DNA of 64,000 nt, taken from the NCBI GenBank assembly GCA_963792785.1, contig CAWBXO010000004.1, positions 578,278 to 642,277 on the forward strand, written 5' to 3'. A program made the position numbers and the translations under genes. The notes beneath the pieces were generated by a model that saw only the letters and a program-made list of their open reading frames with translations, was not told where the DNA came from and did not search any database. Shown here piece by piece: positions 3,746-32,903 of the stretch (position 1 is the stretch's first letter; each line of letters begins with the position of its first letter). The DNA comes from an uncultured Acidobacteriota bacterium (GTDB lineage: Bacteria > Acidobacteriota > Vicinamibacteria > Vicinamibacterales > CAVVIG01).

Positions 3746-4116
3746 TTCTTCGCACTCATCCGCCACGCCATCAGCCCGGCGAAGACGGCGATGCCCGCCA
3801 GCAGCTGGCGTTCGGTCGTTGGATCGAGGGGACTCTCGAAGTCCCGCACGTCGAGCCGGAACTTCGTCCAGGCGGACGAGTCGTACGTGTCCCAGTAATA
3901 CGTCAGCTGAGAATCGTGTGTCTCGACGGCGAAGCCGTCGTCTCCCATGCCCATCGGCAGTTCGGGCGGCATCCGGGGCAGATGCTGCTGCGGATCCACC
4001 AGCCACGCCGCCGCCTTCAGACCAAGGCTTTTCCCCTCGGCGGGCGGCCACGCGAGCACGACCAGAACGGCCGCGACCCAGATGACCCACCAGGCGCCGC
4101 GGCTCGGCTGCCACAT
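3742..4116 (-). CDS. Hypothetical small membrane protein
   Basis: 124-aa ORF with hydrophobic N- and C-terminal segments (WWVIWVAAVLVVLAW; LLAGIAVFAGLMAW) and non-shadow-like composition. I recognise no family. Confidence 0.5.
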   Translation of the reverse strand: MWQPSRGAWWVIWVAAVLVVLAWPPAEGKSLGLKAAAWLVDPQQHLPRMPPELPMGMGDDGFAVETHDSQLTYYWDTYDSSAWTKFRLDVRDFESPLDPTTERQLLAGIAVFAGLMAWRMSAKK

Positions 4117-4130
4117 GGGGGAATTATACG

Positions 4131-4167
4131 TTCCTCAGCTCCCCAGTTCCTCAGCTCCTCAGCTCCG
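4131..4167. repeat. Octamer array of the CTCCTCAG family (TTCCTCAG CTCCCCAG TTCCTCAG CTCCTCAG CTCCG)
   Basis: Read directly. Unit 4155-4162 contains the stop codon (TCA complement, 4159-4161) of the HD-domain gene. Confidence 0.9.
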
Positions 4168-4749
4168 TATGATCCCCGCCTCGCAGAAGCCATCGATGAT
4201 CCCCACGACCGTCGGCCACACCTCGGGCATCGCCGACTCGATCGGCCGCATGCGCTCGATCACCTGCCCCCGCGTCAACGCGTGGGTCTTCCAGCTGCCG
4301 CCGTCGGCGTGCGCATTGATCAGGAACGGCTGAAAGCGGTCCATGGCGTTCGCGAATCGCGCGGCGGCGGTCTCCCGCGCCTCGAACTCGTCCCACAACT
4401 CGCGAAACCGCACCGCCTGGTCGGGTGGGAGTAGACCGAACAGCCGGTCGGCGGCGGCCTGCTCGCGGTCCGCCTTCGTCTTCTGCCCCTCCAGGTCGTA
4501 GGCGAACGTGTCGCCCGCGTCGATCTCGACCAGGTCGTGGACGACCAGCAACTCGAACGCGCGCCACAGATCGAAGTGGTCGGCGGCGTGCTCGCGCATC
4601 ACCATCGCGGCGAGCAGGAGGTGCCAGGAATGCTCGGCGGAGTTCTCGAACCGGGAGCCGTTCACGAGCGGCGTGCGCCGCAGGACGGTTTTCAGCTTGT
4701 CGGCTTCGACGAGAAAGGCAATCTGGCGGGTGAGGCGATCGTCAGGCAC
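4159..4749 (-). CDS. HD-domain phosphohydrolase (YfbR-like 5'-deoxynucleotidase family)
   Basis: Intact 196-aa ORF with HD-superfamily motifs: NSAEHSWHLLL ... LVVHDLVEIDAGDTF. Confidence 0.75.
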   Translation of the reverse strand: MPDDRLTRQIAFLVEADKLKTVLRRTPLVNGSRFENSAEHSWHLLLAAMVMREHAADHFDLWRAFELLVVHDLVEIDAGDTFAYDLEGQKTKADREQAAADRLFGLLPPDQAVRFRELWDEFEARETAAARFANAMDRFQPFLINAHADGGSWKTHALTRGQVIERMRPIESAMPEVWPTVVGIIDGFCEAGIIRS

Positions 4750-4781
4750 GAAGAATTATAGGCCGCGGCCCACGGCGGACC

Positions 4782-4904
4782 TCAGTCGTCGTCCTTGTCG
4801 CGACGGCTCCAGCGGCGTTTCCATTCACGCTGGCGCCACCACCTCGAGGTGAGGTCGTAGACGAACACGCCGACGATCAGAACGGCGATGAACGCGATGG
4901 CCAA
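4782..4904 (-). CDS. Possible 40-aa single-pass membrane peptide (TTG start)
   Basis: My own minus-strand translation: (M)AIAFIAVLIVGVFVYDLTSRWWRQREWKRRWSRRDKDDD, stop at 4782-4784. It is below the ORF-track cutoff, and hydrophobic helix plus basic tail is the only support. Confidence 0.25.
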   Translation of the reverse strand: MAIAFIAVLIVGVFVYDLTSRWWRQREWKRRWSRRDKDDD

Positions 4905-4948
4905 CTTTGGGAACTTTATATGACTCTAAAAGTCACAGTCAACCACGA

Positions 4949-6247
4949 TTAGGTTGTGACCGCTTCTCCTCGTGCAACGAGCACCGCTTCGCCGGCCGCC
5001 ACGAGCGCCGCCAGGGCGAGCCCCTCGGCGGCCTGTTCCACCTCGGCGAGCGTGGGATACGACGGGGCGACCCGGATGTTCCGGTCCTCGGGGTCCCGGC
5101 CGTACGGGAACGTCGATCCGGCGGGCACGACGACGATGCCGGCCTCCTTGGCGAGGGCGATGGTCCGGCGGGCGCAGCCCTTCATGACGTCGAGGCTCAC
5201 GAAGTAGCCGCCTTCCGGACTCGTCCATTCGGCCACGCCGCTGCCACCGAGCCGCTCCGCGAAGATGCGCTGCACGGCCTGGAACTTCGGCGCGAGGCTC
5301 GCCGCGTGCTTCTGCATGTGGGCGGCGAGGCCGGCCGCGTCCTTGAGCAGGCGCACGTGGCGGAGCTGGTTGACCTTGTCGGGCCCGATCGTGGCGCGCT
5401 CCAGGTGCCCGAGCATCCACTTCACGTTGGCCGCCGATGCGGCGAAGAACGAGACGCCGGCCCCCGCGAACGTAATCTTCGACGTGGACGCGAACACGAA
5501 CGGCCGGTCCGCGTGGCCGTGCGTTTCGGAGAGGGCGATGATGTTCGCGATCTCGCGTCCCTTCGGCGTGAGGTGGTGCACGCCGTACGCGTTGTCCCAG
5601 AACAGGCGGAAGTCGGGCGCGGCGGTCTTCATCCGCGCGAGCCGCTCGACGACTTCGTCCGAGTAGACCTCGCCCGTGGGATTGCTGTATTTCGGCACGC
5701 ACCACATGCCCTTCACGGTGGCGTCGCCGCCGGCGAGCGCCTCGACCGTGTCCATGTCCGGGCCGCGGCCCGTGAGCGGCACGGCCACCATGCGGATCCC
5801 GTGGCCCTCGCAGATCGAGAAATGGCGGTCGTACCCGGGCACCGGGCACAGGAACGTGACGGCCCCGTGCTCTGCCCACGGGTGGCCGCCGGGCACGCCG
5901 TGCCGCAGCGCGATCGCCACGGCGTCGTGCATGAGCGTGAGCGACGCGTTGTTGCCGGCGATGACCTGCGCGACCGGCGCGCCGAGCATCGGCGCGAAGA
6001 GCGCCCGCATCTCGGGCAGCCCCTGCACGCCGCCGTAGTTGCGGCAGTCGGTGCCGTCGGTGGCCCGGTAGTCGCCCTCACCGGGCAGCGAGAGGAGCGC
6101 GTTCGACAAATCGAGCTGCGCGTCCGAGGGCTTGCCGCGGCCGAGGTTGAGCGCCACGCCGCGTGCGCGAAACGCCGAATAGTCCTTCTGCGCGCGGTCG
6201 TACGCCGCGCGCACCTCGTCAGTCTTACCGGTGCGAAAATCCGTCAC
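4949..6247 (-). CDS. PLP-dependent aminotransferase, class I/II fold (AspT-type aspartate aminotransferase-like)
   Basis: Intact 432-aa ORF with a GTG start. STSKITFAGAGVSF carries the probable PLP lysine, and the fold-type I layout is conserved. Confidence 0.75.
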   Translation of the reverse strand: MTDFRTGKTDEVRAAYDRAQKDYSAFRARGVALNLGRGKPSDAQLDLSNALLSLPGEGDYRATDGTDCRNYGGVQGLPEMRALFAPMLGAPVAQVIAGNNASLTLMHDAVAIALRHGVPGGHPWAEHGAVTFLCPVPGYDRHFSICEGHGIRMVAVPLTGRGPDMDTVEALAGGDATVKGMWCVPKYSNPTGEVYSDEVVERLARMKTAAPDFRLFWDNAYGVHHLTPKGREIANIIALSETHGHADRPFVFASTSKITFAGAGVSFFAASAANVKWMLGHLERATIGPDKVNQLRHVRLLKDAAGLAAHMQKHAASLAPKFQAVQRIFAERLGGSGVAEWTSPEGGYFVSLDVMKGCARRTIALAKEAGIVVVPAGSTFPYGRDPEDRNIRVAPSYPTLAEVEQAAEGLALAALVAAGEAVLVARGEAVTT

Positions 6248-6251
6248 GATT

Positions 6252-6292
6252 CACCACCACCCAGCACCCAGCACCCAGCACCTAGCACCCTA
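6252..6292. repeat. Heptamer array CCAGCAC x3 plus CTAGCAC, preceded by CAC triplets
   Basis: Read directly. It fills the gap between the aminotransferase start (6247) and the VOC-gene stop (6290-6292). It is the reverse complement of the GTGCTGG family at 51551-51590. Confidence 0.9.
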
Positions 6293-7354
6293 CTTACATA
6301 TCTCGCCGAGGAACCCGCCGCCGCCGCAGTACGTCACGTCCTGGAGCTGCATCAGCAGGCCGTCCGGGTCCGTGAAATACAGCTCGGGGGTGCCGCCGTC
6401 GGCGCCGCCGCGATTCGGCATGCGCAGACTGATGTATTTCTGCATCGGCCCGACAGGCCCGCGGCCGTCGGCGCGATCCTTGATGCCGAAGCGCTCGAGG
6501 TTCGCCATCACCTCGTCCGGCTTGAAGCCCACCATGTTCATGCAGGCGTGGTTGATGCTGGCCGGCCGCGGCGCCCCGCCGCCCCGCGCGGCCCCCGCGC
6601 CGCCGGTGAACATCAGGAACGCCACGCCGTTGCCCACACCGAGCGCCGGCGTCGCGGCCTGCATCGTCTGGATGTCGAGGCCGAACAGATCCTGGTAGAA
6701 CTTCGCCGACCGCTCACCATCCGAGACCGAAATGGTGAAGTGGCTCAGGTCGCGCAGCGCCATGAGCCCCTTCGACGGGGAGGGCTCGGGCGTGCCGCAG
6801 ACGTTGCCGAGCGTGCCGGCGCCGCCGCAGTACGTCGGATCCTGAAGCTGCACGACGATGCCGTCGGGGTCGCCGAAGTAAATCTCCGGCGTGCCGCCCG
6901 GCGCGCCGCCGTTCTCGGGCCCGCGCATCCGCACCCGCGCCTTCATCGGCGCGCTCGTGTCAGCGCGCTCGATGCCGTGATCGGCGAGCGTGCGCATCAC
7001 GCCGTCCACGCTGAAATTCTCGACGCTGACGCAGAAGTGGCCGATCCGCGGCGGGTTCGCGCCGGCGGCGCTGAGGGCGAGGAACTGCGGGCCGTCGCCC
7101 AGGCGGAGGACGATCGTGTCGCCCTGGCGCGCCGCGATCGGCAGGCCGAACAGACCCTGGTAGAACGCGAGGGAGCGCTTCACGTCCGACACGCTGAGCG
7201 TCATGTGGTTCAACGCGTGCGCGCGGAACTGGCTGCGGCCCTGCGCAAGCACCTTCGGCGCGAGCGCGAGCGCGGGGAGCGCGGCAAGCATGCCGCGACG
7301 CGAGATCCGACCGTCCTGGTAGCCCTGCATCAGCTTGTCGAGAGGAGCGTTCAT
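6290..7354 (-). CDS. Secreted tandem VOC-domain (glyoxalase / bleomycin-resistance / dioxygenase superfamily) protein
   Basis: Intact 354-aa ORF with a Tat-like N-terminus (RISRRGMLAALPALALA). Two internal repeats each end in TPE(I/L)YF(G/T)DPDG..(V/M)QLQD.TYCGG. Confidence 0.7.
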   Translation of the reverse strand: MNAPLDKLMQGYQDGRISRRGMLAALPALALAPKVLAQGRSQFRAHALNHMTLSVSDVKRSLAFYQGLFGLPIAARQGDTIVLRLGDGPQFLALSAAGANPPRIGHFCVSVENFSVDGVMRTLADHGIERADTSAPMKARVRMRGPENGGAPGGTPEIYFGDPDGIVVQLQDPTYCGGAGTLGNVCGTPEPSPSKGLMALRDLSHFTISVSDGERSAKFYQDLFGLDIQTMQAATPALGVGNGVAFLMFTGGAGAARGGGAPRPASINHACMNMVGFKPDEVMANLERFGIKDRADGRGPVGPMQKYISLRMPNRGGADGGTPELYFTDPDGLLMQLQDVTYCGGGGFLGEICK

Positions 7355-7413
7355 GGCCTCACAGTATAGCGCTGCGGAGCGCTCCGCTTCTTGCGTTAAG
7401 CTACGTATTCACG

Positions 7414-8376
7414 ATGCCCATCGCCCGCCGGACCGCGGCGACCGACGCTGGATGGACGCTGGTGCTGGCCGCCGCCCACGCCGCGGAGCGGATGGCGGAC
7501 GCCGGCCGTGCGGCCGCCTTCACCTTGGGCGATGACGACCAGTTACAGGTGGCCGCCGGCGGCGCGCCCGGCGCCGCCATCACGTGGCACCCTGACGCGG
7601 GCTGGAGGCCGGCCGTCTCCGCCGGCGATCCCTGTCGCCCGATCCTCGACCTCTACCTGCCGATTGCGAGCGCCACGCGGCGGCGGCCGATCACCGTGGC
7701 GCACCTCGGCCAAAGTCTCGACGGCTTCATCGCCACGCGCGCGGGCGAGTCGCAGTTCGTCACCGGCCAGGAGAACATCCTCCACCTGCACCGCCTCCGC
7801 GCCCTCTGCGGGGCCATCATCGTCGGCGCCGGCACGGTGGCGGCCGACGATCCCCAGCTGACGACGCGGCACGTGGACGGCCCCAACCCGCTGCGCGTGG
7901 TCTTCGACCCGGCGCGCCGGCTGGCCGACGGCTACCGCGTGTTCCAGGACGACGGCGTCGAGACGATCTACGCGTGCCGCCGGGCGCTCGTGCGGCCGGG
8001 CGAGACGCATCTCGGGCGCGCGGCGATCGTCCCGATCGACGATCGGTCGCCGGCGGCCGGCGCGCACGATCTGATGGCGCGGCTGCGCGCGCGCGGCTGC
8101 GCGCGCGTGTTCGTGGAGGGCGGCGGCGTGACCGTGTCGACGTTCCTCGAGGCCAACCTGCTCGATCGCCTGCACCTGGCGATCGCGCCGGTCCTCATCG
8201 GCGACGGCAAGCCCGCGATCCGCCTGACGCCGCGCGACTTCCTGCGCGACTGCCCCCGCCCGCGCTACCGCGTCTTCCGCATGGGCGGCGACGTCCTGTT
8301 CGACTGCGAGCTCGGCGCCATCGACCAGGGCGAACCCGACGACGGCGCCGACGACGGCATCAGCCGCATCATCTGA
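7414..8376 (+). CDS. RibD C-terminal-domain (dihydrofolate-reductase-like) reductase with an N-terminal ~95-aa extension
   Basis: Intact 320-aa ORF. ITVAHLGQSLDGFIATRAGESQFVTG...LHRLRALCGAIIVGAGTVAADDPQLT...VFVEGGGVTVSTFL is typical of the RibD_C fold. Confidence 0.7.
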   Translation: MPIARRTAATDAGWTLVLAAAHAAERMADAGRAAAFTLGDDDQLQVAAGGAPGAAITWHPDAGWRPAVSAGDPCRPILDLYLPIASATRRRPITVAHLGQSLDGFIATRAGESQFVTGQENILHLHRLRALCGAIIVGAGTVAADDPQLTTRHVDGPNPLRVVFDPARRLADGYRVFQDDGVETIYACRRALVRPGETHLGRAAIVPIDDRSPAAGAHDLMARLRARGCARVFVEGGGVTVSTFLEANLLDRLHLAIAPVLIGDGKPAIRLTPRDFLRDCPRPRYRVFRMGGDVLFDCELGAIDQGEPDDGADDGISRII

Positions 8377-9232
8377 TCGCTCGCACTGAGACCTGGAACT
8401 GAGGAACTCGAACTTCCGCGTTCTCCAGGCCGCCAGGTCCTCGTGGCCGACGACCAGCGCCGATCGCCCGCGCGTCGACGTGCGCGCGCCGGCGCTCGCG
8501 CCATGACTCGATCGCCGCGGCTTCGCCGGGGCGCATCTCCCCTGCAGCTCGTGCCCAGCCGTCGATCAGTTCCCGCTGCAAGTCCGCGTCGGCCGTGCCG
8601 AGGCGCCAGTCACTGGCGGCCCGCTCGACGCGATAGCCGCGTGCCGCGAACAGCTCACTCGCGCGGCGGGCGGCATCTGGGCCAAGCGCCGGGCCGAAGC
8701 CCTTGTCCGTCCGCTGATGCGCGTTCACGAGCGCGACGACGCCGTCGTCCATCGGATCCGCAGGGGTGCAGGCGATCCGGCCGTCGTAGCTGAGCGCGAA
8801 AAGCGCCGCGGCGCCGGCGGCCGCAATACGATCGACAAGATCGGCCAGCCACGCGTCCGAAACGAGATCCAGGAGCGCCGAGGCGGTGACGAGCGACGCG
8901 CCGGCGAGCACGCGTGCGTCATCCAGGCGGGCGAGATCGGCTTCGAGGCACTCGACGGCTGCCCCCGCGCCCGCGCCGTGCGCGCCGGCGGCTCGCGCGA
9001 GCAGCGCGGGATCGCGGTCGACCAGCCGCCAGCGCCAGGCGCCCGGGAGGCGCGGCGCCAGGAACCGCAGATTCGATCCGGTGCCGGCGCCGAGGTCGAC
9101 CGCCAGACGCTCGCCCTCCCCCGCCGTCGCGCCGCGGAGCGCGTCGATCGCGGCGCCGGTCACGGTCGCCGATCGCGCGGCCGCGTCCGCCGGCTCGCGA
9201 AGCGCCAGCCACTCCGCGCTAAAGCCGCTCAT
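8369..9232 (-). CDS. SAM-dependent methyltransferase
   Basis: Starts at MSGFSAEW (ATG 9232-9230), overlapping the upstream GT stop by 14 nt. SAM motif I is VDLGAGTGSNLRFL. The C-terminal ~30 aa are doubtful: an alternative frame near 8455-8470 reads GRSALVVGHEDLAAW, which looks more native and hints at local indels. Confidence 0.7.
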   Translation of the reverse strand: MSGFSAEWLALREPADAAARSATVTGAAIDALRGATAGEGERLAVDLGAGTGSNLRFLAPRLPGAWRWRLVDRDPALLARAAGAHGAGAGAAVECLEADLARLDDARVLAGASLVTASALLDLVSDAWLADLVDRIAAAGAAALFALSYDGRIACTPADPMDDGVVALVNAHQRTDKGFGPALGPDAARRASELFAARGYRVERAASDWRLGTADADLQRELIDGWARAAGEMRPGEAAAIESWRERRRAHVDARAIGAGRRPRGPGGLENAEVRVPQFQVSVRAIR

Positions 9233-10301
9233 GCGCCATCCAGTCGAGCGCGTCGGCGAACGCCGCGGCCGCCGCCGGCCAGGTCGGCAGCCGCGCGCGC
9301 GCGCGCCGCGCGCCCTCGGCGAACCGCCCGCGCAACGCCGGATCCGCCAGGACGCTCGACAGGGCGGCGGCCAGCGCCGCCGCGTCACCCGGGGGCACGA
9401 GGATGCCGGCGTCCTCGCCGATCAGGCCGGGAATCCCGCCGGTCGGCGTGCTGATCACGGGCAGTCCGCGCGCGAGGGCCTCGGCGACCGCCATCCCGTA
9501 CCCCTCGTGTCGCGTCGGCAGCACGAAGACGTCCGCGGCGTCGTAGTGCGCGTGCAGCGCCTCGGGCGCGGCTTCGCCCGCCAGCGTGACCAGATCCTCG
9601 AGGCCGGCCGCGCGAACGCGCGCCTTGAGGCGGTCCACGGTGCCCGCGTCGCGATCCAGGCTCCCGACGCAGACCAGCCGCCAGTTCCGCTCCGCGATCG
9701 ACGCGAGCGCGTCCACCAGCACGTCGTAGCCCTTCCGCGGCACCAGCGAACCGACCGCCAGCAGCCGCACCGTGCCACCGTCCGATCCGCGCGCGAGCGG
9801 CGCGGGGTCGGTGCCCGGCTCGACGACACGGACGCGACCGGGCGGCACGCCGTAGGACCGCAGCGCGTCCGCCGTTGCTCCGCTGGTGACGATGACCGCT
9901 CGCGCGGCCGCGAGCGCCCGGCGCTCGCTCGCATCGAGCGCGGCGCGCGATGACTCCGCCAGGCCCGTTTCGAGCGCCAGTGGATGGTGGACGAGCGCGG
10001 CGAACCGCAGGCGCGCGGCTTCGCGTTCGACTTCGTCCGGCACGGCGCCGAATGCCAGCCCGTCGACGACGACGATCGACGCATCCGGAAGGCGGGCCAG
10101 CGATCGCGCCAGGGCGGTGCGATCGCCCGCGCTCGGAAACGGATAAGCGCCTTCGGCCTCGATCACGTGAACGGTCCGGCCGAGCGCGCGCAGGCCGGCC
10201 ACGATGCGGCGGTCGTACTCGTAGCCGCCCGTGCGCGTCTCGATGCGGCCGGGCACGACGAGATGAACGGGCGGGGCGTCAGCGCGAGCCGATTTCGCCA
10301 T
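9219..10301 (-). CDS. Glycosyltransferase, GT4 / group-1 family
   Basis: Intact 360-aa ORF with a C-terminal GT-B signature ([27 protein letters not shown]). It overlaps the PTPS-like gene by 23 nt. Confidence 0.85.
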
Positions 10302-28250: not shown

Positions 28251-30276
28251 ATGCGCCGACACCTGATGGCCTTCATTTTCGTCGCTTTGCCGTTGGCGGC
28301 CGTCATGGCGGCCGCGCAGTCGGCGACGGCGCCCGCGCCATCCGCGTCCGGGCTCGACCTCGCGGCCATCGACCGCGGCGCCAGTCCGTGCACCGACTTC
28401 TACGCGTTCGCCTGCGGCGCCTGGTCCCGGGCGAACCCCGTGCCGGCGGACCGCCAGCGCTGGGGGCGCTTCGACGAGCTGCAGGATCGGAACTTCACGT
28501 TTCTGCGCCGCATCCTCGAGACGCCGGGCGGCCAGGGCGATGAGCGCAAGGCCCGCGACTACTACGCCGCGTGCCTCGATACGGCCGCCATCGAACGCGG
28601 CGGCCTGTCGCCGCTCGAACCGCAGCTGCAGCGCATCGCCGCGCTCGCCGGCCTCGACGGTCTGCCGGCGCTCCTGGCCGGCCTGCACACCATCGGCGTG
28701 AACGCGCTCTTCCGGTTCCGCGCGGACACCGACGCGCACGACGCGACGCGCGAGATCGCCGACGTCGACCAGGGCGGGCTCGGCCTGCCCAACCGCGACT
28801 ACTACACGAAGACCGACGCGCCCTCGGTCGCCCTGCGCGCGAAGTACGTCGCGCACCTCGAGCGGATGCTGGGGCTGCTCGGCGACGCGCCGGCGCGCGC
28901 CGCCGCCGGTGCGCAGGCGATCATGGCGTTCGAGACCGCCCTCGCCGAGGCATCCGAGGCCCCGGTCGAAAGACGCAATCCGGCCACGACGGATCACCCG
29001 ATGACGGTCGACCAGCTCCAGGCGCTCACGCCCGGCTTCGACTGGAGCGGGTACCGCGCCGCGGGCGGCGCGCCGGCGTTCTCATCCCTCAACGTGGACG
29101 CCCCCGACTTCCTGAAGGCGATGGACGCCCTCCTCGCCGCGACCCCGGTCGCCACCCTCCAGACCTACCTGCGCTGGCGCCTGGTCGCCGCCTCGGCCAC
29201 CATGCTGCCCGCGGTGTTCGACGAGGCCAACTTCGATTTTTACGGCCGGACGCTCGCCGGCCAGAAGGCGCAGCTGCCGCGCTGGCGCCGCTGCGTGTCG
29301 GCGACCGACGCCGCCGTGGGCGAGGCCCTCGGCCAGGCGTTCGTCGCCGAGGCCTTCGGTCCGCAGTCGAAGGCCGACATGCTCGGCATGGTGCAGGACA
29401 TCAAAGGCTCCATGGCGAACGACATCGCGAGCGCCGACTGGATGAGCGCCGAGACGAAGCAGGCCGCGAAGGCCAAGCTGGATGCCGTCGTCGACCGCAT
29501 CGGCTACCCGGACACGTGGCGGCGCTACGACTCGATGACCGTCGGCGCGGCGACCGCGCTCGCGAACCGGCAGCAGGCCAACGCGTTCGACTGGCGGCGC
29601 GAGATGGCGAAGATCGACAAGCCCGTGGACCGCGGCGAGTGGTCGATGACGCCGCCGACCGTGAACGCCTACTACAGCCCCGATCGCAACAACATCAACT
29701 TCCCCGCCGGCATCCTGCAGCCGCCCTTCTATCAGGGCGAGCGCGACCCGGCCGTGAACTACGGGGCGGCCGGCGCGGTCGTCGGCCACGAGCTGACGCA
29801 CGGCTTCGACGACCAGGGGCGGAAGTACGACCCCGAGGGCAACCTGCGCGACTGGTGGACCGCCGCCGACGGCGCGAAATTCGAGGAGCGCGCCAGCTGC
29901 ATCGCGAACGAGTACCGAAGGCTTTCAGGTGGACGCCGACACGCACCTGAACGGCCGGCTCACGCTCGGCGAGAACACGGCGGACAACGGCGGCGTGCGC
30001 CTCGCGTTCCTCGCGTACCTCGCCGGGCCCGGCGCCAACGCCCCCGCGAATCTCGACGGCTTCACGCCCCAGCAGCGCTTCTTCCTCGGCTACGCCCAGA
30101 TCTGGTGCGAGAACCGGACGCCGGAGTACGACCGGATGCAGGCGCTCACCGACCCGCATTCGCCCGGACGCTTTCGCGTGAACGGCGTCGTCTCGAACAT
30201 GCCGGAATTCCAGCGGGCGTTCGCGTGCCGCGCCGACGCGCCCATGGTGCGGCAGAACGCATGCCGCGTCTGGTAG
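28251..30276 (+). pseudogene. M13-family zinc metallopeptidase (PepO / endothelin-converting-enzyme-like) with a single frameshift near 29912-29925
   Basis: Has a signal peptide and HExxH (VVGHELTHGFD). After CIANEY the frame is lost, and the true continuation (E)GFQVDADTHLNGRLTLGENTADNGG...MPEFQRAFACR is ORF 29929..30276. The track fuses the wrong-frame read-through with the next gene. Confidence 0.8.
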
Positions 30277-30971
30277 CGCAGGCGCTGCTGAACGCGCAGC
30301 AGGCGATCGTCGCCTGCGAGCGGTGCCCGCGCCTGCGCGCCTACGGCGCGCGGGTCGCGCGCGAGAAGCGGCGCGCCTATCGCGACGACGTGTACTGGGG
30401 CCGGCCCGTGCCCGGGTTCGGCGACCCGCGCGCCCGCCTCCTCATCGTCGGGCTCGCCCCCGCGGCGCACGGCGCCAACCGCACCGGCCGCGTCTTCACC
30501 GGCGACGGCGCGGGCGGATCGAGCGGGTTCCTCATGGCCTCGCTGCACCGCACGGGCTTCGCCAACCAGCCCACGTCCGAGCGCGCCGACGACGGCCTGC
30601 GGCTGCGGGACGCGTTCATCGCGATGGCCGTACGGTGCGCGCCGCCCGACAACAAGCCGACACCCCGCGAAATCGCCAACTGCCGCATCCACTTCGACGC
30701 CGAGTTCGACGCACTGCCGCGCGTCGGCGTCGTCGCCGCGCTCGGCAAGGTCGCGTTCGACGCCACGCTGCACCTGCTCGCCCGGCACGGCACGACGTTC
30801 GCGCGCCGCCCCGCCTTCGGCCACGGCGCCCGCGTGGAACTGCCTGACGGCCGCGTGCTGCTCGGGTGCTACCACCCGAGCCGCCAGAACACGCAGACCG
30901 GCAAGCTCACGAAGGGGATGATCGATGACGTCTTCGCGCTCGCGCGGGACGTCATCGAGACGAGGTTCTAA
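30261..30971 (+). CDS. Uracil-DNA glycosylase, family 4/5 (motif A reads GLAPAAHG, so family-5 UdgB-like)
   Basis: ATG 30261 overlaps the M13 stop. Supporting sequence: CERCPRLRAY, LLIVGLAPAAHGANRTGRVFTGD, GCYHPSRQNTQTG. Confidence 0.8.
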   Translation: MPRLVAQALLNAQQAIVACERCPRLRAYGARVAREKRRAYRDDVYWGRPVPGFGDPRARLLIVGLAPAAHGANRTGRVFTGDGAGGSSGFLMASLHRTGFANQPTSERADDGLRLRDAFIAMAVRCAPPDNKPTPREIANCRIHFDAEFDALPRVGVVAALGKVAFDATLHLLARHGTTFARRPAFGHGARVELPDGRVLLGCYHPSRQNTQTGKLTKGMIDDVFALARDVIETRF

Positions 30972-31178
30972 AGGTTCCAAAGGTTCTGGGGGTTCTGAAG
31001 GTCGGGTTCTCGGTTCCAGGGGTTCAGAGGTTCTAAGGGTGCTGGCGGCGCGGACGCCGCGTAGTCGGAACCACTGAACCCTCGAACCCTCGTACCTTGG
31101 AACCCGACCCCCAGAACCTCCAGAACCCCTGGAACCTTTAGAACCGCTGCTTCCAGTAGAACCGCTGCATCCAGGAAC
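30963..31178. repeat. ~200-bp palindromic element, copy A: GGTTC-periodic arms around the core GGGTGCTGGCGGCGCGGACGCCGCGTAGTCGGAACC, plus TAGAACCGCTGCWTCCAG x2
   Basis: Read directly. The left arm starts inside the last UDG codons (stop 30969-30971). It aligns with copy B at 31934-32125 in the same orientation. Confidence 0.85.
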
Positions 31179-31220
31179 TCCCTGTGCCGCGCGGTGTCCA
31201 ACTGAGTACGGGAGGCTCCG

Positions 31221-31931
31221 ATGCTCACACGCACCCTCGTGGCGGCGTCGTTTGCCGGACATCTGATCGTGCTCACCGTGATCGGCGTCGTGCAGGCTCT
31301 CGCGATGGGGCCGCTGCCGCAGCCGCGCCATCCCCTCGATCCCTTCGTCGTTCACCTGGTGCGGCTCGGCGACATCGAACTGCCGCCGATGCCGCGCGCG
31401 GAGGCGCGGCCGCCGGGCAGGGCGGACGCATCGAGCGCGCCCGTGGTGCGGACGGCCTCGCCGACCGTGGCGGCGCCCCTCGAACCGCAGACGGGCATCC
31501 GGCCTGAGACGGATCTCGATCGCGCGTTCGGCGCGCGCGGCATCGGCGGCGGCGAGCCCGCGATCCGATCGCTCGGCAGTCTCGGCCAGTCGCTCGGCGG
31601 CCCCGTGGCGCTGCCGGAGGCGCCGCCACGCCCGGCCGGACCGGTGCGGCTGCATCAGGGCATCGCGCCGCCCGTTCCGATCTCGATGCCGACGCCGATT
31701 TACCCGGCGATCGCCCGCACGGCGCGCGTCGACGGCATCGTGATCCTCGACGTCGTCATCGACGAGACGGGGCGCGTGACCGGCGCGAAGGTGCTGCGAT
31801 CGATTCCCTTGCTGGACAAGGCGGCCATCGACGCGATCACGTCGTGGCGCTACGAACCGGCCAGGCTGAACGGGATCCCGATCGCGATTTCGATGACGGT
31901 GACCGTACGCTTCACGTTGAACGGTCGGTGA
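31221..31931 (+). CDS. TonB-family energy-transducer protein
   Basis: Intact 236-aa ORF with an N-terminal TM segment, a Pro-rich spacer and a TonB C-terminal domain (YPAIARTARVDGIVILDVVIDETGRVTGAKVLRS...WRYEPARLNG). Confidence 0.8.
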   Translation: MLTRTLVAASFAGHLIVLTVIGVVQALAMGPLPQPRHPLDPFVVHLVRLGDIELPPMPRAEARPPGRADASSAPVVRTASPTVAAPLEPQTGIRPETDLDRAFGARGIGGGEPAIRSLGSLGQSLGGPVALPEAPPRPAGPVRLHQGIAPPVPISMPTPIYPAIARTARVDGIVILDVVIDETGRVTGAKVLRSIPLLDKAAIDAITSWRYEPARLNGIPIAISMTVTVRFTLNGR

Positions 31932-31933
31932 AG

Positions 31934-32125
31934 CGCAGCGGTTCTGGAGGTTCCAGGGGTTCCGGGGGTTCTGGAGGTCGGGTTCTGGGTTCTAGAGGTT
32001 CAGAGGTTCTACGGGTGCTTGCGGCGCGGACGCCGCGTAGTCGGAACCGCTGAACCCTCGAACCTGTCGAACCCAGAACCCGACCTCCAGAACCCCCAGA
32101 ACCCCTGGAACCCCTAGAACCTCTT
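31934..32125. repeat. ~200-bp palindromic element, copy B (core GGGTGCTTGCGGCGCGGACGCCGCGTAGTCGGAACC)
   Basis: Read directly. It begins 3 nt after the tonB stop and contains the stop and the last ~40 codons of the convergent glycerophosphodiesterase ORF. Confidence 0.85.
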
Positions 32126-32903
32126 CGACAGTTGGGACGATCACGTCCGGCCGATCCGTGATGAGCGCGTCGACGCCCCACGACAGCAGGCGGCGCGCGT
32201 CGGCCTCGGTGTCGACGGTCCAGACCTGCACGGCGAGCCCCGCGCGATGCATGGCGGCCACGAAGCGCGGCGAGACGACGCGCGTCCGGCCCGCGCGCTC
32301 CGGCACCTGGAAGCCGCCGTACGCCGGCCGCGACGGCGTCAGACCGATCCACGACCGGTAGAGCGCCCATCGCACTTCCTCACGCCAGGCGCTCGTCGCG
32401 ATCGCCGGCTCGATCGCGCGCGCCGCCGGCAGGGCGCGCGCCGCAAACGCGCCGAGGCACACGCGGTCCACCGCGTCCGCGGCGCGCACGACGTCGACGA
32501 CGGCGCGCGCGAGGGCTGCGGTGTCGGCCTTGAGCTCGATGATGACGCGCACGCCGGTGAACCGCGCCAGCACGTCGGCGAGCCGCGGCACGCCGATGCC
32601 CTGCCCCCGAAAGGGGAACCCGCCGTCCCGCGCGAAGCGATAGCCGGCGTCGGCCGCGGCCAGCTCGTCCGCGGTGCGCGCCGCGATCGGGCCGCTGAGG
32701 TCGGTGGTGCGTTCCAGCGTCGGGTCGTGATGCACGACGACGACGCCGTCGCGCGACAGGTGCACGTCCAGCTCGAGCCCATCGGCACCGACCGCCAGGC
32801 CGCGCTCGAACGCGGGCATCGTGTTCTCGGGGGACAGGCCGCTTCCGCCGCGGTGCGCGAAGACGAGCGGCCCCACGGCGTCGAAAAAGGCGGCGCGGGA
32901 CAC
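31992..32903 (-). CDS. Glycerophosphodiester phosphodiesterase (UgpQ/GlpQ family)
   Basis: Real part of long ORF 31992..33923, with GTG start at 32903-32901 (VSRAAFFDAVGPLVFAHRGG). Motifs are HRGG..PENT and ELDVHLSRDGVVVVHHD. The C-terminal tail is encoded by repeat copy B. Confidence 0.8.
   Translation of the reverse strand: MSRAAFFDAVGPLVFAHRGGSGLSPENTMPAFERGLAVGADGLELDVHLSRDGVVVVHHDPTLERTTDLSGPIAARTADELAAADAGYRFARDGGFPFRGQGIGVPRLADVLARFTGVRVIIELKADTAALARAVVDVVRAADAVDRVCLGAFAARALPAARAIEPAIATSAWREEVRWALYRSWIGLTPSRPAYGGFQVPERAGRTRVVSPRFVAAMHRAGLAVQVWTVDTEADARRLLSWGVDALITDRPDVIVPTVEEVLGVPGVLGVLEVGFWVRQVRGFSGSDYAASAPQAPVEPLNL

Follow-up and report, generated by a model that had tools for sequence, protein, structure and literature searches.

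The subject of this analysis is a pair of palindromic elements, called here copy A and copy B, in a 64,000-nucleotide stretch of DNA (the window; GC content 70.4%) from an uncultured bacterium of the Vicinamibacterales, an order of the Acidobacteriota. Copy A lies at the end of a UDG-family gene (30288..30971, + strand), and copy B spans the junction between a gene for a protein with a TonB_C domain (31221..31931, + strand; hereafter tonB), which is located between the two copies, and a convergent GDPD gene (31992..32900, - strand). The three genes were assigned with Pfam. An earlier note, written from the letters of the window, had drawn attention to both elements and compared them with known repeat families.

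Only two sites in the window have GGTTC and GAACC in clusters, and each of them holds eight GGTTC followed by nine GAACC, with the GGTTC motifs spaced identically in both copies (9/9/9/14/7/9/8 nt). In copy A the left arm (30964..31033) consists of these eight units, the core or loop (31034..31067, + strand) contains the small hairpin GCGGCG-CGGA-CGCCGC at 31045-31060 followed by GTAG at 31061-31064, and the right arm (31068..31145) comprises eight GAACC units complementary to the left arm and one unit decayed to GTACC. A tail (31141..31178, + strand) follows, carrying an 18-nt direct repeat, AGAACCGCTGC(T/A)TCCAG, whose GCTGC matches the inverted GCAGC with which copy B begins. After this GCAGC, the left arm of B (31935..32009) continues with eight GGTTC units spaced as in A, its core (32010..32043, + strand) holds the same hairpin and then GTAG (32037-32040), and its right arm (32044..32126) has nine GAACC units. 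The loop of both copies is 34 nt, and in both (n = 2) the GTAG stands 3' of the core hairpin on the strand that reads GTAG.

The two copies, which share one orientation and are separated by 976 bp, are 83% identical over 195 nt, with a direct repeat of 125 nt at 90% identity, and measure ~182-195 bp. Their 36-nt cores (31037-31072 in A, 32013-32048 in B) differ by a single base. The 28-mer GCGGCGCGGACGCCGCGTAGTCGGAACC matches exactly at 31045 and 32021, both on the + strand, and neither the rest of the window nor 100 shuffles gave another match with three mismatches or fewer. Since A and B share both the core and the irregular order of units, these comparisons indicate that the pair arose by the copying of a single complete element. 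An assembly duplication, which the earlier note had named as a possible undoing of its reading, is excluded by the 17% divergence of the copies and by their unlike flanks.

The inverted arms are complementary over 81 nt at 85% in B and over 70 nt at 79% in A, so that each copy is predicted to form one hairpin of ~85 bp. The predicted folding energies are -134.7 kcal/mol for A (z = -9.9) and -153.7 kcal/mol for B (z = -13.9); for neither copy did any of 200 shuffled sequences fold as well, and the + and - strands are equally stable when folded. Differences between A and B fall in 26 of 45 unpaired and 7 of 150 paired columns, a contrast that we did not take as evidence of compensatory change, since only two sequences are compared and the structure was derived from them. 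An Rfam scan of the whole window returned no match at gathering thresholds and, at an E-value threshold, solely sub-threshold matches to generic long-hairpin (miRNA-type) models. No terminator-like site was found on either strand of 30700-32400, and a search for sigma-70 promoters at the elements found none.

The description given earlier of two similar palindromes in one orientation, with a near-identical core and arms of GGTTC units (aggttctgg / ccagaacct), agrees with these cluster counts, identities and arm complementarities, and the fold that it had proposed to check gave the giant hairpins described above. Its extent for copy A, 30963-31178, stands in part: the regular palindrome ends at 31145, and 31146-31178 is the tail with the 18-nt direct repeat. 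On the terminator activity that it had proposed to test, the computed result is the lack of a terminator-like site in 30700-32400.

The elements alter the genes that they touch. The UDG stop codon, TAA at 30969-30971, lies inside the first unit of copy A, AGGTTCTAA, where AGG TTC TAA reads Arg-Phe-stop, so that this gene takes its stop and the two codons before it from the element. The tonB stop (31929-31931) is 8 nt ahead of the first GGTTC of copy B, which begins 3 nt past that stop. On the - strand, the GDPD open reading frame (ORF) ends at 31992-31994; of its 302 residues, the Pfam domain reaches as far as residue 252. The reverse strand of copy B encodes residues 259-302, the last 44, and the stop codon (31992-32126), and adds 44 codons to the gene. 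GDPD orthologues stop 5 to 20 residues past the conserved DRPDxIVP motif. It had been noted before that the elements begin in or just after stop codons and that copy B encodes the C-terminus and stop of the GDPD protein, and both observations are borne out, the second with a length of 44 residues.

Insertion of the copies and dispersal of their arms

Two syntenic loci, L002 and L003, were recovered through TonB homologues (TonB identity 56% and 63%, respectively), and both share with the window the gene order M13 peptidase, UDG, TonB, GDPD, a 498-aa protein, VWA and LON. Neither fetched locus contains a GGTTC cluster; in L002 a spacer of 90 nt separates UDG from tonB, and tonB overlaps GDPD. 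This comparison indicates that A and B are insertions relative to the native locus. The array-free orthologous sites agree with reading both as interspersed palindromic repeats, which supports part of the earlier interpretation. Because tonB is syntenic in relatives that have no copies, it is a resident gene and its bracketing, on which the earlier note had remarked, is incidental. Pfam analysis of the syntenic L002 locus found no transposase within ~10 kb, in line with what had been noted for the window.

In L003, at 140-165, the sequence GAACCCCGAGAACCTTT lies directly past the UDG stop, a TGA that overlaps the first of two GAACC units, and it matches the outer right arm of copy A at 17 of 21 positions. 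We take it for two surviving units from the right arm of an element that stood at A's site, which argues that copy A is probably old and copy B a later copy. The possibility that the core of A is native spacer was rejected: its similarity to the L002 UDG-tonB spacer is 10/17, not above chance in GC-rich DNA. Ahead of the tonB start, copy A leaves ~75 nt of the native spacer in place. These include a leader (~31190-31220) that is kept in the window, in L002 (9960-10000) and in L003 (170-210), with the pattern GGTGTCCAAC..(G)AGTGCGA..GGAGG(G)CTC..ATG; it is intact beside A and may be a regulatory or 5' untranslated region motif.

The earlier note had proposed to trace the element through its 35-nt core; as the signature of a dispersed family, this core is not supported. 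A 20-mer from the core, scanned against one genome each for 185,579 species, gave a single chance match inside an FHA-domain gene, and BLAST found the window core in none of the fetched loci, including those of the 120 related elements described below; by the refuting condition set in the earlier note, the core looks private to this locus or genome. The arms behave differently. A pattern of three GGTTC at 9-nt spacing, a gap of 108-138 nt and three GAACC at 9-nt spacing was found at no fewer than 120 metagenome loci (at least 120, several with two elements per contig) and on one high-GC IMG/VR contig (L006). The arm design, and not the core, defines the family. Nearly all of the matches listed are contigs from soil or rhizosphere with 61-69% GC. 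The sample is ascertained by its own pattern, which biases element length and the regularity of outer units. The reverse-order pattern matched in IMG/VR solely low-GC collagen-like coding repeats, and of the first four viral matches of the forward pattern three were repeats of this kind.

At least some of these contigs appear to come from Vicinamibacterales: the window's LipA shares 84% identity with a named Vicinamibacterales protein, L088 encodes an Lhr protein whose best matches are in that order, and L046 and L081 carry a folE gene 80% identical to that of the window. A full-text literature search, of incomplete coverage, for GGTTC repeats and for palindromes of Vicinamibacter or Acidobacteria found no description of the family.

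Anatomy and gene context of the family

Family members follow the layout (GGTTCNNNR)n, variable loop, (YNNNGAACC)m and are 150-640 bp long. Among the matches listed, to which the following figures refer, the median is 8 units per arm (maximum 49), the loops are 0-122 nt, and neighbouring units are spaced by 9 nt in 1341 of ~1830 pairs and by 8 nt in 157. GGTTC itself is fixed by the way in which units were collected; the commonest decayed units, AGTTC, GGTGC and CGTTC, keep most of it. Position 9 of the unit is a purine (A or G) in ~90-97% of units, while positions 6-8 are free. Polarity is strict, with the GGTTC array first in 121 elements and the reverse order in none of the high-GC loci, including six second elements on contigs that had not been selected for order. 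Spacing of 9 nt is found in 87% of outer and 56% of inner units, a difference that was set aside because regularity of the outer units is imposed by the pattern used for the search.

The two arms of one element are made of related units (cosine 0.47 vs 0.10 between elements), and the unit numbers of the two arms are weakly correlated (rho 0.21). Elements on the same contig share their four variable bases: all six such pairs have a cosine above 0.5, vs 8% of between-contig pairs. Besides the window, L011, L012 and L044 also carry element pairs with a shared core or unit type. In the orthologous elements of L012, L119 and L107, whose contigs are 82-89% identical, unit numbers differ, and complementarity between the arms is poor in L017 and L035. 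Across the family, loops show no general tendency to be structured (mean z -0.39), and the idea that arrays nucleate on pre-existing hairpins was rejected. The target-site duplications that the earlier note had proposed to look for gave no signal: in the family, the longest k-mer shared by the two flanks averages 3.85 nt vs 3.73 nt in shuffled pairs, and no direct repeat flanks A or B, with the fuzzy boundaries leaving short duplications possible.

Two members are unusual in their arms. The left arm of the L010 element (2317-2533) is a higher-order repeat of 27 units, in which a five-unit block (~41 nt) is repeated about four times, so that multi-unit blocks duplicate as in satellite DNA. The longest element among the matches listed, at L040 (3392-4032, 641 nt), has 49 GGTTC on the left vs 14 GAACC on the right, and its arms are of different unit types.

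The family keeps a close relation to gene ends. Where a gene points inward to an element, the distance between its stop codon and the first perfect unit is from -30 to +25 nt in ~70 of 84 cases among the matches listed, with a median of ~+3; distances to downstream start codons are broader. TAG and TAA are more frequent there than is usual for stop codons in DNA so rich in GC. Of the matches listed, 35 lie between co-directional genes, 13 between convergent and 7 between divergent ones.

Other members lie within genes and in frame. A 9-nt unit equals three codons, mostly stop-free, and the arms read Gly-Ser-x or Phe-x-x on one side and Asn-Pro/Leu-x on the other. In-frame members were found in the Lhr helicase of L088 (ORF 4291-9240) and of L037, in a PD40/gamma-glutamyltranspeptidase (GGT) protein of L086, and in homologous membrane proteins encoded beside extracytoplasmic function (ECF) sigma factors in L052, L084, L111, L127 and L020. 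The membrane proteins have no Pfam match and are taken to be anti-sigma factors from their gene context and a Cys/His motif.

One such case is the Lhr loop between VPVEDM and SIW. It measures 21 residues in 69 of 101 orthologues, with a conserved IPSGPA(S/H), and 6 residues in M. smegmatis; in L088 the IPSGPAH is kept at the centre, with the GGTTC array before it and the GAACC array after it. Expansion in situ from native GGTTC/GAACC seeds was rejected, as none is present in the loop DNA of L141, an Lhr orthologue that lacks arrays. In the anti-sigma-like genes one array stands on each side of a transmembrane helix, and every one of the ~80%-identical homologues has a unit type of its own. Separately, the same loop in the Lhr orthologues P0312, P0333 and P0340 consists of (D/G)RS repeats, a short centre and PN(V/G) repeats, which looks like decayed GGTTC-type arrays in another Lhr sub-lineage.

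A form that carries a PF05635 gene, and known repeat classes

The same pattern scan recovered, in a lineage of ~52% GC, three loci (L008, L038 and L100) in which four GGTTC nonamers and three or four GAACC enclose ~600 nt. The enclosed ORF encodes a 142-aa protein of Pfam family PF05635 (23S_rRNA_IVP; E 2e-30; TIGR02436 "four helix bundle protein"), and a homologue 53% identical is arranged in the same way in L101 (4231-4779). In L008 the gene-carrying element (4033-4691) has a gene-less companion 1 kb away (5627-5783) with which it shares subterminal sequence, and the pair stands in the classic relation of a full-length element and its deletion derivative. The arrays and PF05635 genes of L008 and L101 lie between cpaE-like genes, in a tad/Flp pilus locus.

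The pairing of this gene with inverted arrays extends to other bacteria. Among 11 plasmid loci, at least 8 have the PF05635 gene flanked by inverted arrays whose 7-8-nt unit is specific to the lineage, the hosts being Gemmatirosa, Azospirillum, Nostoc, Anabaena, Pseudanabaena, Geminocystis and Stanieria. Among 37 non-redundant PF05635 loci in IMG/VR, 28 have inverted complementarity of one flank with the other at z >5, 27 have tandem 6-8-mers on at least one side, and 15 have them on both sides, mostly with visibly complementary units. A full-text literature search of incomplete coverage for PF05635 together with tandem repeats found no general pairing described. Some of the plasmid genes stand amid cas genes, between cas6 and cas4 in two plasmids and between cas10 and cmr3 in a third, among L132 (Pseudanabaena), L140 (Anabaena sp. 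90) and L135 (Picosynechococcus); in L132 and L140 the PF05635 gene is framed by inverted heptamer arrays with the units AGCTTTT and GACAGGT.

PF05635 is the family of Avd, an accessory protein of diversity-generating retroelements (PMC10053308), and the S23p ORF of the intervening sequences (IVSs) of 23S rRNA belongs to it as well. In the Coxiella IVS this ORF sits in the loop of a terminal-inverted-repeat stem of 28 bp that is cut by RNase III, and GACAGAT heptamers occur in variable number (PMC4990558). The GGTTC elements have in common with IVSs the long stem of terminal inverted repeats, the short tandem repeats of variable number in the arms and, for L008 and L101, an IVS-type PF05635 gene enclosed by the arrays; IVSs, too, are regarded as selfish (PMC4990558). 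They differ in that the window copies have no ORF and do not lie in rRNA, and in that the GGTTC arms are far more repetitive.

The nearest described analogue is the convergent repeat pairs of the GGGAATC heptamer in Xanthomonas. These number 70-75, lie within 50 bp of stop codons or overlap them, occur preferentially between ORFs of like orientation and seldom where ORFs diverge, and, together with the GGGGA(C/T)T arrays of Nostoc, have been read as G-quadruplex elements with no link to a gene, their length differing between species while the array type is kept (Rehm et al. 2015, PMC4692102). The GGTTC elements have the same convergent tandem pairs able to form a stem-loop, the same position at stop codons and the same variability in length. 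Unlike the G-tract heptamers of Xanthomonas and Nostoc, the GGTTC unit is 9 nt long with four free positions and has no regular runs of three or more G, hence no regular G-quadruplex potential; in-frame intragenic members are common, and the hosts belong to another phylum. Cyanobacterial short tandemly repeated repetitive (STRR) heptamers we take to be a related array class.

The classes proposed by the earlier note, repetitive extragenic palindromic sequences (REPs), bacterial interspersed mosaic elements (BIMEs) and MITEs (miniature inverted-repeat transposable elements), do not accommodate the two copies, which depart from them in size, in their tandem-unit arms and in the missing target-site duplication signal. 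REPs are single stem-loops, 20-40 bp long with a stem of 5-13 bp, that bear GTAG or CGTC as a tag and are mobilised by RAYT transposases; together with Rickettsia palindromic elements (RPEs) they lie 3' of genes, can supply a stop codon from their termini, occur in frame, including in DNA-repair helicases, and are species-specific (PMC3733652). The window elements, by contrast, measure ~182-195 bp and have arms of 70-81 nt made of 8-9 tandem units, and only the inner hairpin, with its 6-bp stem, is of REP size; no RAYT is known to go with elements of this family. In E. coli REPs the GTAG stands 5' of the stem, and the GTAG of the window core stands on the other side. A BIME, a mosaic of REPs that alternate in orientation around defined linkers, was rejected because the units within an arm are direct tandem repeats with one orientation switch at the centre. 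With MITEs the elements share terminal inverted repeats, their whole arms being 79-85% complementary, and L008, with its full-length and deleted copies, shows a non-autonomous derivative of an element that carries a gene, but the target-site duplication signal is lacking and the gene of the full-length form, PF05635, is not a known transposase. An integron attC site, with R'' (RYYYAAC) at its 5' end and R' (GTTRRRY) at its 3' end, is excluded by the reversed polarity (GTT units 5', AAC units 3'), by the synteny of tonB where there are no repeats and by the lack of an integrase in the syntenic 20 kb, and an intrinsic terminator, a GC-rich stem-loop with a T/U tract behind it, by the lack of a terminator-like site in 30700-32400. 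Foldback (FB) transposons of eukaryotes have long inverted arms of short tandem repeats, of variable and unequal length, around heterogeneous loops; their arms are built alike, and they are unrelated in sequence.

Origin of the two copies

Taking these results together, we consider A and B to be two gene-less copies of one member of a hairpin-repeat family of Vicinamibacterales-like soil bacteria, non-autonomous and IVS-like, with a probability that we put at about 0.6. Such elements would be relatives of the IVS-like selfish elements whose inverted tandem arrays enclose a PF05635 gene. The numbers of units in family members drift by slippage. GGTTC would be the recognition site of a factor acting in trans, and the best candidate for this factor is a PF05635 protein of the Avd-like kind, its gene lying elsewhere in the genome. 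For the window we infer the PF05635 link from motif, period and polarity, which the two lineages have in common. Transcribed along with UDG, tonB or GDPD, the ~85-bp stem may act as a substrate of RNase III and as a barrier at the 3' end, by analogy with IVSs and REPs, and the effects on the host (a new UDG C-terminus, a GDPD tail of 44 residues, insulation of tonB) would be by-products.

Several observations weigh against this interpretation. The core is private to the two sites of the window, so B may be a local copy of A, and the copies known from the host genome are these two, from a 64-kb window. There is neither a target-site duplication signal nor a known transposase. A PF05635 gene was found neither in the window (tblastn) nor in any fetched high-GC locus, and the link rests on the lineage of ~52% GC. 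In 36 co-directional contexts the sense strand is the more stable in 11 and the antisense strand in 24, which leaves selection at the RNA level unsupported. Finally, the arrays inside genes flank native sequence, which the insertion of a self-contained hairpin fails to explain.

This last point can be met by a broader and more speculative proposal, which we hold to be possible though doubtful: GGTTC arrays, the cyanobacterial and Xanthomonas heptamers and the intervening sequences of 23S rRNA could be the cis-acting ends of one very large unrecognised selfish class, with a PF05635 Avd-like protein as its sole gene, reading a lineage-specific unit, and with arrays laid down non-canonically around native sequence. 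One conceivable route would be nick-primed or template-directed addition of units converging on a centre, in place of cut-and-paste. If true, it would account for the GGTTC-first order, for the way in which the four variable bases are common to a whole genome and for the in-frame arrays that flank a transmembrane helix or a helicase loop.

The privacy of the core also feeds a different account of the pair, in which the palindrome arose at this locus and was copied over ~1 kb by ectopic gene conversion or repair, with no mobile or dispersed family in this genome. The core at only two sites of the window, absent from 185,579 species genomes and 120 related elements, and the distance of 976 bp in one orientation are what such an event would leave. 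The arm design, however, is common to at least 120 unrelated loci, and the pairs in L011, L012 and L044 repeat the sharing of a core or unit type; the divergence of 17% means that the copying was not recent, and the L003 remnant argues for an old A and a later B. We therefore regard a purely local origin as unlikely.

Equally unlikely, in our judgement, are hairpins selected by the host as cis-regulatory devices (transcription barriers in both directions, stabilisers of mRNA 3' ends or RNase III sites that insulate tonB from UDG and GDPD), the family being kept for this function. Extremely stable stems placed right past stop codons, with a family median of ~+3 nt, would suit such a role, as would the location of B between convergent genes, the excess of convergent and co-directional over divergent contexts (48 to 7) and the precedents of REPs and IVSs (PMC3733652, PMC4990558). 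Set against these are the lack of a T-tract terminator, a sigma-70 promoter or an Rfam match, the lack of a G-U bias on the sense strand, the relatives that have no elements at the same sites, the seven members between divergent genes and others inside ORFs, and the two altered protein C-termini, which resemble collateral damage rather than design.

It is still less probable that the arrays act at the DNA level, as GGTTC iterons recruiting a nucleoid, partition or replication protein, with the potential to form a hairpin as a by-product. An invariant GGTTC among varying spacers, strict periodicity and polarity, the weak correlation of unit numbers between arms (rho 0.21) and the poor arm complementarity in L017 and L035 would all be expected of binding sites. 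Yet GGTTC is not over-represented outside the elements of the window (~46-58 per strand vs ~62 expected), the elements lie in coding regions and by stops and not at regulatory or origin-like sites, and sites repeated every 9 bp do not stay on the same face of the helix. We find a structured non-coding RNA gene, or two such genes, hardly credible in spite of the very negative fold z-scores, given that both strands fold equally, that Rfam matches are sub-threshold only, that no promoter was found and that the centres are not conserved across the family.

The hairpin-repeat family that we favour as the source of A and B would matter beyond this locus. Vicinamibacterales are among the most abundant soil bacteria, and a family of repeats that reshapes the ends of genes and enters conserved proteins in frame affects gene calling (as for the C-termini of UDG and GDPD), metagenome assembly and, through new Gly-Ser and Asn-Pro linkers, protein evolution. 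The pairing of PF05635 with inverted tandem arrays, if it holds, would give a function by association to a large family that has no known role and would link the rRNA intervening sequences, the heptamers of cyanobacteria and Xanthomonas and the nonamer hairpins into one class; the role of the IVS/S23p proteins and the spread of such repeats would become testable.

Upstream of the UDG gene that copy A terminates, the M13 peptidase gene of the window (28251-30276) is split over two frames near 29910-29940, with positions 1-86 of the Pfam Peptidase_M13 profile in one frame and 94-205 in another, either because it is a frameshifted pseudogene or because of a homopolymer error in a long-read assembly. 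As a result of this split, the ORF read from stop to stop fuses the peptidase with UDG.

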